A DNA stretch of 64,000 nucleotides from Oceanispirochaeta sp. (GTDB taxonomy: Bacteria; Spirochaetota; Spirochaetia; DSM-2461), in the NCBI GenBank assembly GCA_963666275.2, contig CAXXOA010000003.1, forward strand, positions 317,806 through 381,805. Reading direction: 5' to 3'. How positions within the stretch are numbered: the first letter of the stretch is position 1; each line of letters opens with the position of its first letter. Position numbers and translations under genes: made by a program. Below are positions 3,428 to 62,883 of the stretch, piece after piece. The notes beneath the pieces were generated by a model. That model saw only the letters and a program-made list of their open reading frames with translations, had not been told where the DNA came from and ran no database searches.

Positions 3428-4921
3428 TCAGGGGCTGTTTTTCAGCTCTTCATCCAGAAGGCTCTGCCCTCTGTCCAGAATCTGTTCGGTCGTCAATTGT
3501 CCTGAAAGGGCGAAACGAAGCAGTTTCCACATGATATTTTTATACACGGTAAAAGATTTCTGCGAGGGGATCACGGTTCCATCCGCAGCGCTGTCCAGCA
3601 TTATCCTGTAGTAGGGGTTTCTGTCCCCGACCAGATTCGCCGCTTCTGTGTTGGAAGGAAGCTTGGTCAGGGCAATGGGAAAGTCCTGCTGGTATCCGAT
3701 TCCTGTCAGATGCCCTATGAGAGCCCGGGCAAGGAGGGGATTCCGGGATTTTCCCGTTATGGCGAATGCTTTAAAGTCCAGCAGGGGAGAGACTTGTTTT
3801 CCGGTTGTTTCATTCCGGGGAAAACCGGCAATACCGAAGGGAATCCCCAGCTCCTGGAAAAGAGGGATTGTATAGGAGGCGGATAGGATGACTGCCGCTT
3901 TTCCCGTGGCAAAATAGGAGGTCATGGCGTCCCTTTCCAGGGGCTTGAAGTAATCAGTATCCGTAAGGGCTGTCAGGTATTCCAGAGCCTGTCGGGTGGG
4001 CCTGTCATTGACAGTGATTGTACCATCCCTGTTGAGAATCTCCTCTTTGCCGAAGGCTGCCTGAAAGGGGATCAGCCAGTTGATGGAGTAGGCATTCCAT
4101 GTCAGGGGCACTTCTACCTTTCCTGTCAGAGAGGACGCCAGGCTCTCCAGCCGGTTCAGAGTCAGATCAGGGTACCGGGAAAGATCAATATAGTCGGGGT
4201 TATAGAAAATGAGCTGCGTATCGTAGTAGAAAGGGGCGGCCCACTGTTTCCGTCCTGACTGAAATGTCCTGTTTCCCCGGGAGTCCAGAGGGGAGGCTAT
4301 CCAATCGGGAATGGTCTGCAGGGCTTCTGTCCGGATTAGTCTGTTCATGTCTCCCGCAGAAACCATAATCAGATCCGGTACATCCCCGCCGCCACGCAGG
4401 ATGGACAGGTATTTGGATGCGGGATCCGGAAGGGTGGTTACATGGATCTCCAGACCGAAACGGGCGGCGTAGGACTCTATCTCCTCTTTCAGCTCCTTTG
4501 TTCCTTCCCAGCTGATCCAGACTTCAAGCTTCGTATTCAGGAGCTTTTCACCTGCAATATCGATGGCTCTGATATCCCTGAATACCTGTCCGTTCTGCCA
4601 GTGAAGATCCCATGTGCCCGGTGAGCCTTCTATCAGGCAGGTCCTGTTTATACTATCGGGAAAGGACGCAATCCGGAGGGATTCCTGAGAACCGCCGCTC
4701 TTGATATTCAGTTCCCAGGCGTCGTAGAGAGGGGGGAACAGATCGCTGAGAACCATACCCCGGGGAGAGTTCTCTCCCGGAAGGGCATAGGCTCTCCGGG
4801 TAAGCTCCCCGTGAGGATAGCTGTTCCGGAGTTCTCCGTTCAGAGTTATGTCTAAGGCGCTCACCGACAGAAGGGGCACGAAAAAAAACACTGTCATGCA
4901 GTGCTTCAGAGTTCTTTTCAT
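3428..4921 (-). CDS. Extracellular solute-binding protein (family 1, MalE-like) with an extra N-terminal domain
   Basis: Signal peptide followed by SBP_bac_1-type motifs (GGDVPDLI, APFYYDTQLIFYNPD, FATGKAAVI). Start moved to ATG 4921, which follows GGAAAGGAAG. Confidence 0.82.
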   Translation of the reverse strand: MKRTLKHCMTVFFFVPLLSVSALDITLNGELRNSYPHGELTRRAYALPGENSPRGMVLSDLFPPLYDAWELNIKSGGSQESLRIASFPDSINRTCLIEGSPGTWDLHWQNGQVFRDIRAIDIAGEKLLNTKLEVWISWEGTKELKEEIESYAARFGLEIHVTTLPDPASKYLSILRGGGDVPDLIMVSAGDMNRLIRTEALQTIPDWIASPLDSRGNRTFQSGRKQWAAPFYYDTQLIFYNPDYIDLSRYPDLTLNRLESLASSLTGKVEVPLTWNAYSINWLIPFQAAFGKEEILNRDGTITVNDRPTRQALEYLTALTDTDYFKPLERDAMTSYFATGKAAVILSASYTIPLFQELGIPFGIAGFPRNETTGKQVSPLLDFKAFAITGKSRNPLLARALIGHLTGIGYQQDFPIALTKLPSNTEAANLVGDRNPYYRIMLDSAADGTVIPSQKSFTVYKNIMWKLLRFALSGQLTTEQILDRGQSLLDEELKNSP

Positions 4922-4926
4922 AGGGT

Positions 4927-5025
4927 CTTCCTTTCCAAACACGGGAGGTAGGACTGTTTCCGGTCCTACCCGGCGGCTCAGTTTTCATGACAGACATCTG
5001 TTTTAGAAATATGAGCTCGGAAGTC
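4927..5025 (-). ncRNA. Moco RNA motif / molybdenum- or tungsten-cofactor riboswitch candidate (RF01055-like), P3-less form
   Basis: The minus strand reads GACUUCCGAG-CUCAUAUUUCUAAAACAGAUGUCUGUCAUGAAAACUGAG-CCGCCG-GGUAGGACCGGAAACAGUCCUACC-UCCCGUGUUUGGAAAGGAAG. P1 is CUUCC/GGAAG, P2 has a CUAA..AUG receptor-like loop, and P4 has a GAAA tetraloop. The 3' CUCCCGUnUUUGGAAAGG matches the E. coli moaA leader. Confidence 0.88.
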
Positions 5026-5045
5026 GATTCTTTTATATCGATTGA

Positions 5046-51438: not shown

Positions 51439-51629
51439 CCTTTACCTCCGGCCTTGCCATTTTCTCAGAAAACACGTATTTTTCTGCAGGAAAGCCACTT
51501 ATTTGCTCTCCATTTTACTGTATTTTTTCAATAAGTCAATCAATCCCTTTCAATTTGCTTACTCTTTACCTTCGAATATTTTAATCGATATAAATTGATT
51601 CATTTAAATTTGTAGTGTATTCTAGTACA

Positions 51630-52076
51630 ATGACTTTTGAGTATCAGGTCTCAGGTGAAGATTATTCTCTGGCCGGACGGGCTTCGAGCAGTATCAAGAA
51701 GAAGCTGAAACAGCTCGGGCTTCCCTCCTGTCTTATAAAACGTACGGCCATCTCCATGTACGAAGCTGAAATCAATATGGTGATTCATGCGGACGGGGGA
51801 AATATCCTGGTTGAAATCGGAGCGGATTCGATTAAAATAGTACTCTCCGATCAGGGGCCGGGAATACCGGACCTGGAACAGGCAATGCAGGAAGGTTTTT
51901 CCACCGCTTCGGAGGAAGCCCGGGAGCTTGGCTTCGGTGCCGGTATGGGCCTGATGAATATACAAAGGAATTCGGATCTCCTGCAGGTGGATACAGAAGT
52001 CGACAGGGGAACAACGGTTACTATCGTTTTGAATATGGAAAGAGATGAGGACGAAGAATGTACTTCCATTCTGTAA
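51630..52076 (+). CDS. Anti-sigma regulatory factor / Ser-Thr kinase (RsbT-like HATPase)
   Basis: EAEINMVIHA, DQGPGIPD and GFGAGMGL motifs. Promoter TTGATT-17-TATTCT lies 6 nt before ATG 51630. Confidence 0.88.
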   Translation: MTFEYQVSGEDYSLAGRASSSIKKKLKQLGLPSCLIKRTAISMYEAEINMVIHADGGNILVEIGADSIKIVLSDQGPGIPDLEQAMQEGFSTASEEARELGFGAGMGLMNIQRNSDLLQVDTEVDRGTTVTIVLNMERDEDEECTSIL

Positions 52077-53347
52077 CTCTTGATGAAGAGAGCTGCAAAG
52101 GCTGCACTGTCTGTATAAAAGGATGTCCCACTGAAGCGATCAGAGTTCAGAAAGGCCGGGCCTTTATAATACCCGAACGGTGTATCGATTGCGGCGAATG
52201 TATAAGAACCTGTCCTCATGAAGCCAAAAAGGCAATTTCCGATCCTCTGAGCCAGCTGGAGGACTTCGACTATACCGTTGCGATACCCGCACCGACTCTC
52301 TATGGACAGTTCAAAGATTCCGTCTCCTGTAACAGGATCCTTACGGGGCTGAAGAACCTGGGGTTCGACGAGGTTTATGAGGTTGCCGCGGCCGCGGAAA
52401 TTATCACTGACCTGACGCAGAAGTATCTGGAAAAGAAAAAACCGGGTATTCCCATGATCTCATCGTCCTGTCCCGTGGTTGTCCGGTTGATCCAGTCCCG
52501 GTTTCCCTCTCTGACTGATCAGATTATCCCGCTTATCTCTCCCATGGAGCTGAGTGCCCGGATTGTCAGAGAAAAGAGGAAAGGTTTTGAGGGGCGGACA
52601 GGGGTCTTTTTTATTTCCCCCTGTGCGGCGAAAGTCACGGCTGTTAAAAGCCCCAGAGGTTTTCATGAGTCTTCTGTGGACGGCGTGCTTTCCATACGAG
52701 AAATCTACAAACCCCTGAAGCAGGCTGTGGCTGAAGTGAAAGAGGAGGAAGCGCTTAGTCAGGCCTCTTTCGTCGGAATAAGCTGGGCCAGGACTGATGG
52801 CGAGGGATCGGCGGTGTATGCGGAGAATCATATCTCCGTAGATGGTATCAATCATGTGATTGATGTGCTGGAAAATATTGAAAACGGTCATATTCAGGAT
52901 GTGGATTTTGTGGAAATGATGTGCTGTCCGGGAGGATGTGTCGGGGGGCCTATGACGGTTGAAAACCCCTACATAGCCAAAACCCGGATTTATAATAGAG
53001 AAAGAACAAATCAGAAAGTCGCGGCTCAGCCTCTGTCTCCGGAGCTTCCCGGAGGAATTCAGACACTCTGGGAAGAGGAGCTTGAAAACCGTTCCATTTT
53101 TCAGCTGGATCAGGACTACAGAAAAGCTATACAGATGATGGAGGAGATGGAGTCTCTGCAGCAGGGACTTCCGGGGCTTGACTGCGGTTCCTGCGGAGCT
53201 CCTTCCTGCCGGGCTCTTGCGGAGGATATTGTCCGGGGGAAGGCTTCTGAAACCGACTGTGTTTTTAAGCTGAGAGAAAAGATCCGGGAGCTCACCAGGG
53301 AGATGATTGACCTGGAAAGCCGGATGCCTCCTGGCCTGGACCGCTGA
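52058..53347 (+). CDS. [FeFe]-hydrogenase large-subunit-like protein (sensory/ancestral type) with 2x[4Fe-4S] and a C-terminal FeS domain
   Basis: Two ferredoxin motifs (CKGCTVC..CP, CIDCGEC..CP), H-cluster-like SSSCP, SPCAAK and EMMCCPGGCVGG, and C-terminal LPGLDCGSCGAPSC. Confidence 0.88.
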   Translation: MYFHSVTLDEESCKGCTVCIKGCPTEAIRVQKGRAFIIPERCIDCGECIRTCPHEAKKAISDPLSQLEDFDYTVAIPAPTLYGQFKDSVSCNRILTGLKNLGFDEVYEVAAAAEIITDLTQKYLEKKKPGIPMISSSCPVVVRLIQSRFPSLTDQIIPLISPMELSARIVREKRKGFEGRTGVFFISPCAAKVTAVKSPRGFHESSVDGVLSIREIYKPLKQAVAEVKEEEALSQASFVGISWARTDGEGSAVYAENHISVDGINHVIDVLENIENGHIQDVDFVEMMCCPGGCVGGPMTVENPYIAKTRIYNRERTNQKVAAQPLSPELPGGIQTLWEEELENRSIFQLDQDYRKAIQMMEEMESLQQGLPGLDCGSCGAPSCRALAEDIVRGKASETDCVFKLREKIRELTREMIDLESRMPPGLDR

Positions 53348-53349
53348 CA

Positions 53350-53634
53350 ATGCTTACAGTTATATCTCTTATGGTGCTGGGAATGGGGCTGGGTTACCTT
53401 ATAAGAAACAAAGCCGCTCTTCTCAAAAAACTGGATCGCTGGATAACCTATACCATTTATGTTCTCCTTTTTGTATTGGGCCTGACCGTGGGGAAGAACG
53501 ACATCATCCTTAAGAACATTCATCTCATAGGCGTAAAAGCCTTCATTATAACTTTATCCGCCGTGGCGGGGAGTGTTTTTGTCTGCTGGTTTGTTTTCCT
53601 GTTTTTCTTTCGTTCCCGAAAGGAGAAAATATGA
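53350..53634 (+). CDS. LysO/DUF340 family transporter, small subunit
   Basis: Three TMs with LLFVLGLTVG. Confidence 0.78.
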   Translation: MLTVISLMVLGMGLGYLIRNKAALLKKLDRWITYTIYVLLFVLGLTVGKNDIILKNIHLIGVKAFIITLSAVAGSVFVCWFVFLFFFRSRKEKI

Positions 53635-54233
53635 AAAACAGTCTTATTATTCTCTGCTTTTTTGCTGCGGGTATTCTCCTGGGGATATTCGACATCCTTC
53701 CCGACTTACCGGAGAAGCATGATATAAGTATGTATGTCCTCTACTTTCTGATGTTTCTGGTGGGAATCAGCATTGGGGGGGATTCTCATGCCTGGGATGT
53801 TCTGCGGAAAGCCAATGTGAAGATTTTTCTGGTACCGGGGGGCATTATTGCCGGATCTCTCGGAGGAGCACTGATTGCGGCTCTTATCCTTAAAGGGATG
53901 GCTGTCAAAGATGTTCTTGCGGTGAGCGCCGGATTCGGTTACTACAGCCTTTCCAGCCTGTACATATCCAGTATCAGGGGCGAGATGCTGGGGACAATCG
54001 CTTTACTCTCTAATATTATGAGAGAGATCTTTACGCTTCTGATGACACCCCTTCTTGTGAAGTTCACAGGTCCTCTGTCTCCTATTGCGTCCGGCGGGGC
54101 TACCAGCATGGATACGACTCTTCCTATTATAACCATGTATTCAGGTAGGGATTTTGCCGTTATCTCTCTGTTCAGCGGTATTGTCCTGACAGTCCTTGTT
54201 CCCTTCCTTGTGCCGCTGATTCTCAGCTTCTGA
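53631..54233 (+). CDS. LysO/DUF340 family lysine exporter, large subunit
   Basis: GFGYYSLS, NIMRE and GGATSMDTTLP motifs. Confidence 0.9.
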   Translation: MKNSLIILCFFAAGILLGIFDILPDLPEKHDISMYVLYFLMFLVGISIGGDSHAWDVLRKANVKIFLVPGGIIAGSLGGALIAALILKGMAVKDVLAVSAGFGYYSLSSLYISSIRGEMLGTIALLSNIMREIFTLLMTPLLVKFTGPLSPIASGGATSMDTTLPIITMYSGRDFAVISLFSGIVLTVLVPFLVPLILSF

Positions 54234-54298
54234 ACCCCTACTGTTAATTCCGGGTGTATTGTTCTATAATTTAGCTTCTATCCAAGGGGAGTATCGGT

Positions 54299-54673
54299 AT
54301 GGAAAGAAAACGCTATTTAAATGCCCTGGTATTTTCAATAGTCACATCAGCGGCGACTTTTCTTATTCTTGTTTTTTTCGATCAGGTCCTCCTGAAGGGG
54401 ATTGATCTGGGGATTTTTCTTTCTCTGGCAATCTCTCTGCTTGCGGGAATCCTTCTGTTTCCCTTTTTTCTCTGGATGAGATCAAGGATCATGGAGGAGC
54501 CCATTCCGGCAACCCGTCTGAGTGATCTTGAATTGAATGACAGAGATATCAGAGAAGCGGTTGATCAATGGGTTTATGTGCATTACAAAAAAAGAGCCGA
54601 AGGTGTGATGGAGTTTTCTCTTGATGACAAGGGTTCTTTAGCCTGTACAGTCACAGTCAGGGACGAGTCTTAG
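54299..54673 (+). CDS. Hypothetical membrane protein
   Basis: Two N-terminal TMs. RBS GGGGAG, with TATAAT upstream. Confidence 0.75.
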   Translation: MERKRYLNALVFSIVTSAATFLILVFFDQVLLKGIDLGIFLSLAISLLAGILLFPFFLWMRSRIMEEPIPATRLSDLELNDRDIREAVDQWVYVHYKKRAEGVMEFSLDDKGSLACTVTVRDES

Positions 54674-54797
54674 GGTGTTGAACGGTTTATTTGAGAAATA
54701 ATTTATTCAGATATCAAGTATTTTGATAGCCTGTCGATAATTACAAAGTTCCCGCTGATGTTGATCGAAAATAATTGAAAAAAAATCAGCAAATGGG

Positions 54798-54931
54798 TTT
54801 ACAAGAAAATCAATTTTCAATATTATCACCCTCACGCCCTGAGATGCAGGGGTGAGCAAATAACGGTTTTGAAAAGATTTAAAATAATTTTTACTAACCG
54901 GTTGATTAAAAATAGCAAAATCTGCTATAAC
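54798..54931 (+). promoter_or_regulatory. Tandem sigma-70 P1/P2 promoters of the first rRNA operon
   Basis: P1 TTTACA(54798)-17-TATTAT and P2 TTGATT(54902)-18-TATAAC with extended TG. AT-rich UP-like tracts upstream and boxA-like GTTCTTTGAAA downstream. Confidence 0.7.
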
Positions 54932-54941
54932 TTGTATCACA

Positions 54942-54958
54942 TTGGCACGGAAGTTGCT
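54942..54958 (+). promoter_or_regulatory. Sigma-54 (-24/-12) consensus in the rRNA leader
   Basis: TTGGCACGGAAGTTGCT matches YTGGCACG-N4-TTGCW with GG-N10-GC spacing. Confidence 0.65.
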
Positions 54959-55313
54959 AATGGTTCTTTGAAAGAGTAAATAGAGAAGGGAAATTGAAGT
55001 ATTTGACGAAAGTCAAGTCCATTGCGAATCACAGGCACTTGTGCCGGGGATCGCAATGATTGGTAGTATGTTCGGATCGCTGATCTTTTTAGATTGACGG
55101 TCCGCCCACTATGGTTCGGTTAAGGTTTATCTGAAGCCGTGACCATTAAGATTCCGTTCCTCGGCACTAGTGCCTGTGGTACGGAATATCGTTAGTTTTC
55201 TTTTAGAGATAAAGGGAATCTGACTCACTTTGAAACGGATCAGGATGATTACATTCGACAGTATCTGTTTTGAAGCTTTGATACGAACTTATCCACTTCG
55301 GTGGATAAATTAT

Positions 55314-56855
<1,542 letters not shown>

Positions 56856-57113
56856 AGCGTGAAAGGTATAAAGACCTTGAGTTTGTACACTTAAAGGCAG
56901 TGAGTCACTGAGTAATCGGTGCACTACTGATCATATATGGCTTGGCTTTCGTCAACTACTTCTAATTTCCCTATGGATCATCCTGCAGGTATTTATGCCG
57001 GTGAGGAATCCGACTCTTTTTATATAAAATCCGTCTTTGGACGGTCGTTTTATCCGGTTTGACTGGATGGAATGCTTTTAAATAGGTAATAGCGAAGGGA
57101 TAAATAATAATAT

Positions 57114-60045
<2,932 letters not shown>

Positions 60046-60219
60046 ATATTATTATTTATCCCTTGGTTGCAGAGGCGAGCAGTAAATCTCTGATTTACGA
60101 CCAGCCTTTGAGATATAATTTTTATTCTGCTTTGAATTGCAGAAATAAATTATATCGTGTTATTTATAGAAATTAGCAGTTAACGCTGTTGATTATATAT
60201 AGTGTGCTTCTGCACACAA

Positions 60220-60327
60220 TCTGGTGGCTATTGCGTTGAGGTTATACCCGTTCCCATCCCGAACACGGAAGTCAAGCTCAACTGCGCCGATGGTACTGCT
60301 ACGGTGGGAGAGTAGGTCGTCGCCAGT
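60220..60327 (+). rRNA. rrf: 5S rRNA (operon 1)
   Basis: CTGGTGGC...CCCATCCCGAACACGGAAGTCAAG...GGGAGAGTAGGTCGTCGCCAG. Confidence 0.97.
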
Positions 60328-60332
60328 TCAAT

Positions 60333-60364
60333 CGCCCCCTGTCTTCGGACAGGGGGCGTCTTTA
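60333..60364 (+). terminator. rRNA operon 1 terminator
   Basis: CGCCCCCTGTC-TTCG-GACAGGGGGCG followed by TCTTT. Confidence 0.85.
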
Positions 60365-60554
60365 AGAAAAATCAGAATATCAGAATAATTCGCATTAGAT
60401 TTGATACGGCTTTTGATGTGTTTCATGTTATTTGCTATATCAGGATCCCGATGCTGTTACTCAGAAAGCCCGTCTGTAAAATAACCGGGAAAACCGGTTT
60501 GTTCAGGCAGAATGGACTGTTTCTGTAATATTGCGAAAAAAATCCTGAAAAGGG

Positions 60555-60701
60555 TTTACAAAGGAAGTCATATTCAATATGATCATCCTCGCGCCTCAAG
60601 AAATTGATGCGCAAATGGAAATGATAAATAACTGCCTTGAAAAGATTTAAAATATTTTTTTTGAAAAGCGGTTGACAAGAAATAGTAGTAACTGCTATAA
60701 C
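60555..60701 (+). promoter_or_regulatory. Tandem sigma-70 P1/P2 promoters of the second rRNA operon
   Basis: P1 TTTACA(60555)-17-TATGAT and P2 TTGACA(60672)-18-TATAAC. Confidence 0.75.
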
Positions 60702-60711
60702 TTGTATCACA

Positions 60712-60728
60712 TTGGCACGGAAGTTGCT
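60712..60728 (+). promoter_or_regulatory. Sigma-54 (-24/-12) consensus in the second rRNA leader
   Basis: TTGGCACGGAAGTTGCT, identical to 54942-54958. Confidence 0.65.
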
Positions 60729-61083
60729 AATGGTTCTTTGAAAGAGTAAATAGAGAAGGGAAATTGAAGTATTTGACGAAAGTCAAGTCCATTGCGAATC
60801 ACAGGCACTTGTGCCGGGGATCGCAATGATTGGTAGTATGTTCGGATCGCTGATCTTTTTAGATTGACGGTCCGCCCACTATGGTTCGGTTAAGGTTTAT
60901 CTGAAGCCGTGACCATTAAGATTCCGTTCCTCGGCACTAGTGCCTGTGGTACGGAATATCGTTAGTTTTCTTTTAGAGATAAAGGGAATCTGACTCACTT
61001 TGAAGCGGATCAGGATGATTACATTCGACAGTATCTGTTTTGAAGCTTTGATACGAACTTATCCACTTCGGTGGATAAATTAT

Positions 61084-62625
<1,542 letters not shown>

Positions 62626-62883
62626 AGCGTGAAAGGTATAAAGACCTTGAGTTTGTACACTTAAAGGCAGTGAGTCACTGAGCAATCGGTGCACTACTGA
62701 TCATATATGGCTTGGCTTTCGTCAACTACTTCAAATTTCCCTATGGATCATCCTGCAGGTATTTATGCCGGTGAGGAATCCGACTCTTTTTATATAAAAT
62801 CCGTCTTTGGACGGTCGTTTTATCCGGTTTGACTGGATGGAATGCTTTTAAATAGGTAATAGCGAAGGGATAAATAATAATAT

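Follow-up and report, generated by a model that had tools for sequence, protein, structure and literature searches.

The 17-mer TTGGCACGGAAGTTGCT, which occurs in the leaders of two tandem rRNA operons of this spirochaete and fits the sigma-54 promoter consensus YTGGCACG-N4-TTGCW without a mismatch, most probably forms the core of a boxB-type RNA hairpin in a two-promoter rRNA leader, its likeness to a sigma-54 site being incidental (probability roughly 0.7). A stem-loop lies directly 5' of boxA, in the slot of boxB, and since this tetraloop hairpin covaries across the genus, conservation of the motif can be explained without sigma-54.

Within the window, i.e. the whole 64-kb stretch of DNA analysed, the copies at 54942-54958 and 60712-60728 (both +) are the only matches to the consensus with one mismatch or fewer, compared with 0.19 expected; one of 100 shuffles gave two. 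The strict consensus occurs three times in the 5.27 Mb assembly, and one occurrence is a contig-overlap copy of the 60712 site, leaving two distinct sites, so that across the whole genome the strict consensus is confined to the two rRNA leader copies. Each copy lies 372 nt upstream of a 16S start (55314 and 61084), 10 bases from the -10 hexamer of a putative promoter P2 (TATAAC, 54926-54931) and 3 bases from boxA. The original prediction had described a full consensus match at 54942 and 60712, about 10 nt after the P2 -10 element and 3 nt before boxA, in both rRNA leaders; the match and its placement were confirmed, and "both" holds for the leaders in the window but not genome-wide, where two of five distinct operons carry the motif. 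Public contigs show no difference over 54300-54951 and none or one gap over 60301-60721, which rules out an assembly artefact as the origin of the motif, although these contigs possibly derive from the assembled sample and are therefore not an independent confirmation.

The assembly contains six 16S starts, one of which is the contig-overlap duplicate of the second window copy, giving five distinct operons. This overlap, approximately 6.7 kb duplicated between the end of contig C3 and the start of contig C1, inflates the rRNA operon count. The tandem pair in the window forms class A, with two promoters and the motif; the remaining three operons form class B, with a single promoter and without the motif. 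Operon 1 comprises 16S (55314-56854), 23S (57114-60047) and 5S (60220-60328) rRNA genes, and operon 2 a 16S gene (61084-62624) followed by a 23S gene from 62884 that extends past the window end, all on the forward strand. Two extra '5S' hits were discarded as chance word matches in coding-like DNA. A comparison of the 16S gene with plasmid sequences matched only a Treponema record, at 80.6%, which suffices to identify the organism as a spirochaete. The 16S-23S spacers (56855-57113 and 62625-62883) lack tRNAs, and the only boxA-like word in them, a degenerate one, precedes the 23S processing arm. The region upstream of operon 1 (51615-54673) encodes a histidine-kinase-like ATPase, an [FeFe]-hydrogenase-like Fe-S protein, a LysO-family exporter as two adjacent ORFs, and a conserved 124-aa protein outside any Pfam family, which serves as a marker of the orthologous rRNA locus in all 11 genomes of the genus. 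Elsewhere in the window, a molybdenum/tungsten cofactor riboswitch lies at 4912-5034 (-).

The leaders of both window operons begin with a sigma-70-type promoter, P1 (TTTACA-17-TATTAT, 54798-54826, and TTTACA-17-TATGAT, 60555-60583; both +), whose -35 element does not vary among the 11 orthologous leaders. A GC-rich hairpin (54833-54854, +) lies at the predicted +1 of P1, and a hairpin folds at this place in 14 of 15 leaders, the fifteenth being mis-anchored. It is followed by a boxA-like word without the C (54865-54876, +) that is present also in species lacking the sigma-54 motif, and the succession suggests that a promoter-hairpin-boxA module has been doubled in two-promoter leaders. The putative sigma-70-type P2 reads TTGATT-18-TATAAC with a TG extension in operon 1 (54902-54931, +) and TTGACA-18-TATAAC in operon 2 (60672-60701, +), the -35 element being altered in the first copy. 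A consensus promoter scanner calls P1 in both copies but not P2, the -10 element of which ends in C after an 18-nt spacer; its assignment therefore rests on homology with relatives, which have TTGACA-17-TATATT at the aligned position.

Immediately downstream is the boxB-type hairpin (54940-54962, +; second copy 60710-60732, +), with nine pairs, one bulged U and a C(GGAA)G tetraloop, and the sigma-54 match lies entirely within it. The hairpin starts at about +1 to +2 of P2, some 9 nt past the P2 -10 element, and boxA (GGTTCTTTGAAA, 54962-54973, +; in operon 2, 60732-60743, +) starts on its last paired base. We assign boxA by its position and its conservation, the 12-mer being found between promoter and 16S in the leaders of the genus; it is identical to E. 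coli boxA at 8 of 12 positions, and nusB is present in the genome. An almost invariant purine-rich stretch 3' of boxA corresponds to the 5' arm of the leader-spacer processing helix (54987-55019, +), which pairs with approximately 56939-56972 (duplex -46.8 kcal/mol). A long nested hairpin insert follows at 55021-55190; four of the five operons have it, and the fifth has a shorter stretch in its place.

The hairpin has a predicted folding energy of -9.4 kcal/mol (z -2.26), reached by 5 of 200 shuffles, or 11 of 200 with slightly different ends, and all 14 predicted ordinary sigma-54 sites of the genome fold at only -1.1 to -5.4 kcal/mol. For the five core pairs, 91.7% of cells are paired across 12 distinct class A rows compared with 86.4% in shuffled alignments (0/500 shuffles); 2 of 500 shuffles attained the covariation and all slid controls scored lower, with the tool's own warning that related sequences can beat its shuffles and that the structure was derived from the same sequences. 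RNAalifold recovered the same stem, with double changes in four of eight pairs. In a loop-anchored count over eight pairs and 11 rows, 85 of 88 cells are paired, the three misses belonging to one species with a bulge-free register; alignment A1 omits one genome whose region could not be aligned (G004), duplicate copies and one locus identified later (L209), and the loop-anchored count omits a further genome without the bulge (G008). The loops found across the genus are GGAA, GAAA, GAGA, UACG and AACG, the first four of which are of the classic GNRA and UNCG tetraloop types. Among carriers of the motif, bases outside the consensus change pairwise (T-A to C-G; A-T to G-C or T-A), and the closing C-G pair becomes T-A while the loop remains GNRA. 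This covariation shows that the RNA stem and a stable tetraloop are under selection. Counting against the hairpin reading, all 11 rows retain the weak G.U pair and most retain the bulged U. Single-promoter leaders also begin with a hairpin, one type of which has a 15-mer common to three species from a single half of the genus; slow hairpin change is thus not unique to class A, if somewhat weaker in class B.

To follow the motif through the genus, we compared the leaders of this genome and of all ten other genomes available (11 species). The genus has two rRNA leader classes: two-promoter leaders, found at one orthologous locus and mostly in the second of tandem operon pairs, and single-promoter leaders. 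Eleven of 18 class A leaders carry the motif and seven do not, whereas it occurs in none of the 27 class B leaders. A metagenome scan with a leader word found two loci, one per class, and the two-promoter locus, with an identical motif, adds a twelfth carrier. At the orthologous locus downstream of the conserved 124-aa gene, the motif is kept in six and lost in five of the 11 species. Overall it is retained in seven of the 11 with differing flanks, a check that the original prediction had called for. On the rpoB tree carriers fall in both halves of the genus, so that the simplest reading is an ancestral motif that was lost at least three times. Five species from both halves, with rpoB third positions approximately 50% identical, have the same core 15-mer, and one genome is mixed, with three copies carrying the motif and one without it. 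Loss of rpoN can be ruled out as the cause of motif loss, given that rpoN is present in 11 of 11 genomes; in genomes without the motif, sigma-54-type sites remain in excess of a reversed control (17 vs 7, 25 vs 11, 26 vs 13 and 27 vs 6).

By an alignment-dependent count, the nine sigma-54-critical positions changed 1.44 times per site and the other 13 hairpin positions 2.38 times, with the P1 -35 element (0.00) and the processing arm (0.08) far below either; the critical positions are, however, also the G-C core of the stem and would be conserved in any case. Two distant species have a common variant in which hairpin and consensus are both intact, and in one of these the variant 15-mer recurs letter for letter upstream of an ordinary gene, where it is probably a genuine sigma-54 site. 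A 14/15 look-alike has the same probable role in another. In the one species with a decayed P2, the motif has decayed too. Decay of P2 is seen in one half of the genus, with the -35 element lost in G010 (L108, G010:C59) and both the -35 and -10 elements lost in G004 (L079, G004:C9).

Outside the genus, the motif-plus-boxA pattern was matched in one of 400 other genomes of the phylum, and no 16S start was found at that locus; drafts often lack rRNA operons, and this absence therefore means that the pattern was not found in the genomes searched. Three of 32 leaders outside the genus contain a site with at most one mismatch, at unrelated positions, the closest of them in one of three copies of a sister-genus genome (G019). 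In that genome, one leader (L120, G019:C1) carries CGGCAC-N5-TTGC within a small perfect hairpin upstream of boxA, 278 nt before 16S, and an extra T disrupts the spacing in the other two; it is possibly a homologous hairpin. Leader pattern searches in ten draft genomes of sister genera gave no more than the control level, with one new leader inspected.

The sigma-54 machinery itself is in place: rpoN, whose presence was to be checked according to the original prediction, is encoded in the genome, and sigma-54 activator domains give 21 matches, 17 of them full-length. At positions 8, 12 and 17 the rRNA site reads G, G and T, bases found in 1, 0 and 1, respectively, of the genome's 14 predicted sigma-54 sites, which favour A at all three. 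These departures (G8, G12 and T17) are exactly the bases required by the hairpin. With a matrix score of 14.2 bits, the rRNA site ranks below all 12 leave-one-out seeds (15.4-25.3 bits; the seeds are predicted rather than mapped), and it thus fits the textbook consensus perfectly but the preferences of this organism only modestly. Nevertheless, because the same core is a likely sigma-54 site in a relative, the holoenzyme is probably able to bind the leader site. Among 6,000,000 simulated GNRA hairpins, 88 spelled TGGCAY-N5-TTGC (1.5e-5, approximately 11 times the random rate); at this frequency a few cases are expected over very many genomes, and each is still a rare event.

We propose that the housekeeping RNA polymerase starts at P1 or P2, as the promoter sequences suggest, and that the P2 transcript, beginning almost at the hairpin, would fold immediately. 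The adjoining boxA would then load NusB/NusE for rRNA antitermination, by analogy with E. coli. Since the sigma-54 consensus is partly self-complementary (GCA...TGC), the ancestral hairpin of the genus could by chance have spelled it; the match would have persisted because leader hairpins are slow to change, and would have been lost wherever another hairpin sequence took its place. Sigma-54 holoenzyme may well touch the site without any selected regulation.

A dual use of the element is a tentative alternative that we consider unlikely, in which the RNA hairpin would double as a repressive DNA site, a closed sigma-54 complex occluding P2 and damping the two-promoter operons; an activator might further release the complex from P2. 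We take the footprint of such a complex to be roughly 54935-54965, which would cover the P2 start and discriminator, and algD is reportedly a case of sigma antagonism. Direct occlusion of P2 by this footprint is a variant not separated out in the original prediction, which had envisaged a sigma-54 roadblock of P1 and P2. For P1 the roadblock is disfavoured by E. coli data: in the available portions of the two sources, intragenic sigma-54 sites did not lower the expression of overlapping genes (PMC4591121), and silencing at glnKp persisted without rpoN (10.1101/086108). P2 occlusion, by contrast, is kept at low probability. It retains this share because the perfect consensus, improbable by chance at the simulated rate, appears ancestral and survives in most species of the genus, its critical positions are more conserved than the remaining stem, binding is likely given the use of the same core in a relative, motif and P2 decayed together in one species, and RpoN holoenzyme is described as repressing overlapping sigma-70 promoters in E. 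coli in the accessible text of PMC8743547, with competition at the overlapping glmY/glmZ promoters noted in that of PMC3844500. Several observations weigh on the other side, namely the repeated loss of the motif while rpoN and the regulon were kept, its mixed presence within a single genome, its low score on the genome's own sigma-54 matrix, the failure to find it in the rRNA leaders searched outside the genus, and the coincidence of the critical positions with a G-C stem core that is conserved anyway.

The original prediction had also raised an activator-dependent third rRNA promoter, which we now regard as very unlikely; it would yield a boxA-less pre-rRNA under some nutrient signal. Sigma-54 promoters start transcription approximately 12 nt after the -12 element, here near 54969 and 60739. 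The -24 GG/-12 GC spacing of the leader motif is exact for such a promoter, AT-rich bases lie 3' of it, the genome has 17 activators, and a start upstream of the processing helix (54987 onward) means that the RNA could still mature. That start, however, falls at boxA position 6-8 in all ten carriers checked, and the resulting transcript would be left without the Nus loading site. Inspection of the leader alignment revealed no upstream activator site that tracks the motif: a single conserved element was seen upstream, at 78-80 nt from the GG in seven of ten carriers (93 nt in two, the last being mis-anchored), and species lacking the motif have it equally. Interpreting the element that separates P1 from P2 as a Fis- or NtrC-like site, by comparison with consensus sequences, was dropped since this element does not track the motif. 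No activator gene was found adjoining the leader.

The spacing at comparable loci elsewhere also argues against a third promoter. When species genomes were scanned with a narrow pattern, the consensus and a boxA word downstream of it, 44 loci were returned. Of these, 27 have a gap of 14-18 nt that keeps boxA in the RNA, compared with 6 nt in the leader, although approximately 15 of the loci are one related family. None of the 44 has a 16S start within 700 nt or a tRNA, and the 40 of them searched against Rfam gave no match. The 15 related loci (L010, L011, L012, L013, L014, L015, L019, L020, L022, L023, L032, L036, L039, L040 and L043; for example L012:727-1023:+ and L014:416-715:-) constitute a candidate sigma-54-driven small RNA family, 212-339 nt long, with a strict sigma-54 consensus and a boxA-like word at the predicted 5' end. 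They end in a common module of mostly two CU-rich CCTCTCA words, which look like anti-Shine-Dalgarno seeds, followed by a GC hairpin and a T run, and the long forms have complementary-looking words near both ends. By record title, six of the hosts are Riflebacteria or Rifleibacterium, one is an Erysipelotrichia, and the rest are bacteria.

Least probable is an attenuator in which the hairpin and the U-rich start of boxA would form a weak intrinsic terminator overridden by Nus loading, coupling rRNA to Nus supply: a scanner does call the hairpin plus GTTCTTTGAA terminator-like in both copies (0.4-0.6 expected per region), but the U tract is interrupted and simply boxA, and in single-promoter leaders the first hairpin is separated from boxA by a second hairpin or by a linker of approximately 10 nt.

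Interpretation as a boxB-type hairpin agrees with the organisation of known rRNA leaders. In E. coli, as far as the available text of PMC6614801 and PMC8632103 covers it, boxB precedes boxA and is mostly dispensable, and the rrn nut-like site (boxB-boxA-boxC) shares with the leader described here a hairpin directly 5' of boxA, a position in the 16S leader behind tandem sigma-70-type promoters, and a hairpin sequence that is free to vary. Unlike in E. coli, the spirochaete hairpin lies right at the 5' end of the P2 transcript and in contact with boxA, and it spells a sigma-54 consensus in 7 of 11 species. Mycobacteria likewise combine tandem-promoter (rrnA) and single-promoter (rrnB) operons in one genome, both with boxA, whereas no sigma-54-like site is seen there in the portion of PMC10218544 available and the present genome has two two-promoter and three single-promoter operons.

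For the dual-use alternative, the model is provided by the 'repressive' RpoN promoters of E. coli, where a sigma-54 site overlaps a sigma-70 promoter; according to the accessible part of PMC8743547, these were established by binding and expression tests at protein-coding genes. The leader site described here is known from sequence and is explained by RNA structure, and its target would be rRNA. The silent intragenic sigma-54 sites of E. coli are similar in being consensus sites bound in transcribed DNA without a roadblock effect, but they lie within genes (PMC4591121, in part), whereas the leader site overlaps a promoter start, where occlusion is possible. The available part of another report (PMC12037070) mentions RpoN solely as a control. 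At title and abstract level, literature searches that included spirochaete rRNA leaders returned no report of sigma-54 control of rRNA promoters; most subscription papers, supplements and RpoN ChIP tables lay outside this view.

Best read as an ordinary rRNA-leader hairpin, the motif carries a practical lesson: the sigma-54 consensus is partly palindromic, so that tetraloop hairpins can mimic sigma-54 sites, and motif calls in structured leaders therefore need a covariation check. The genus also supplies natural controls, in the form of species, and even copies within one genome, with and without the motif. Should the dual use nonetheless be true, rRNA synthesis would be under sigma-54 control and one sequence would be under DNA-level and RNA-level selection together, with ribosome synthesis wired to the sigma-54 and enhancer-protein network through occlusion of P2 and, possibly, its release.
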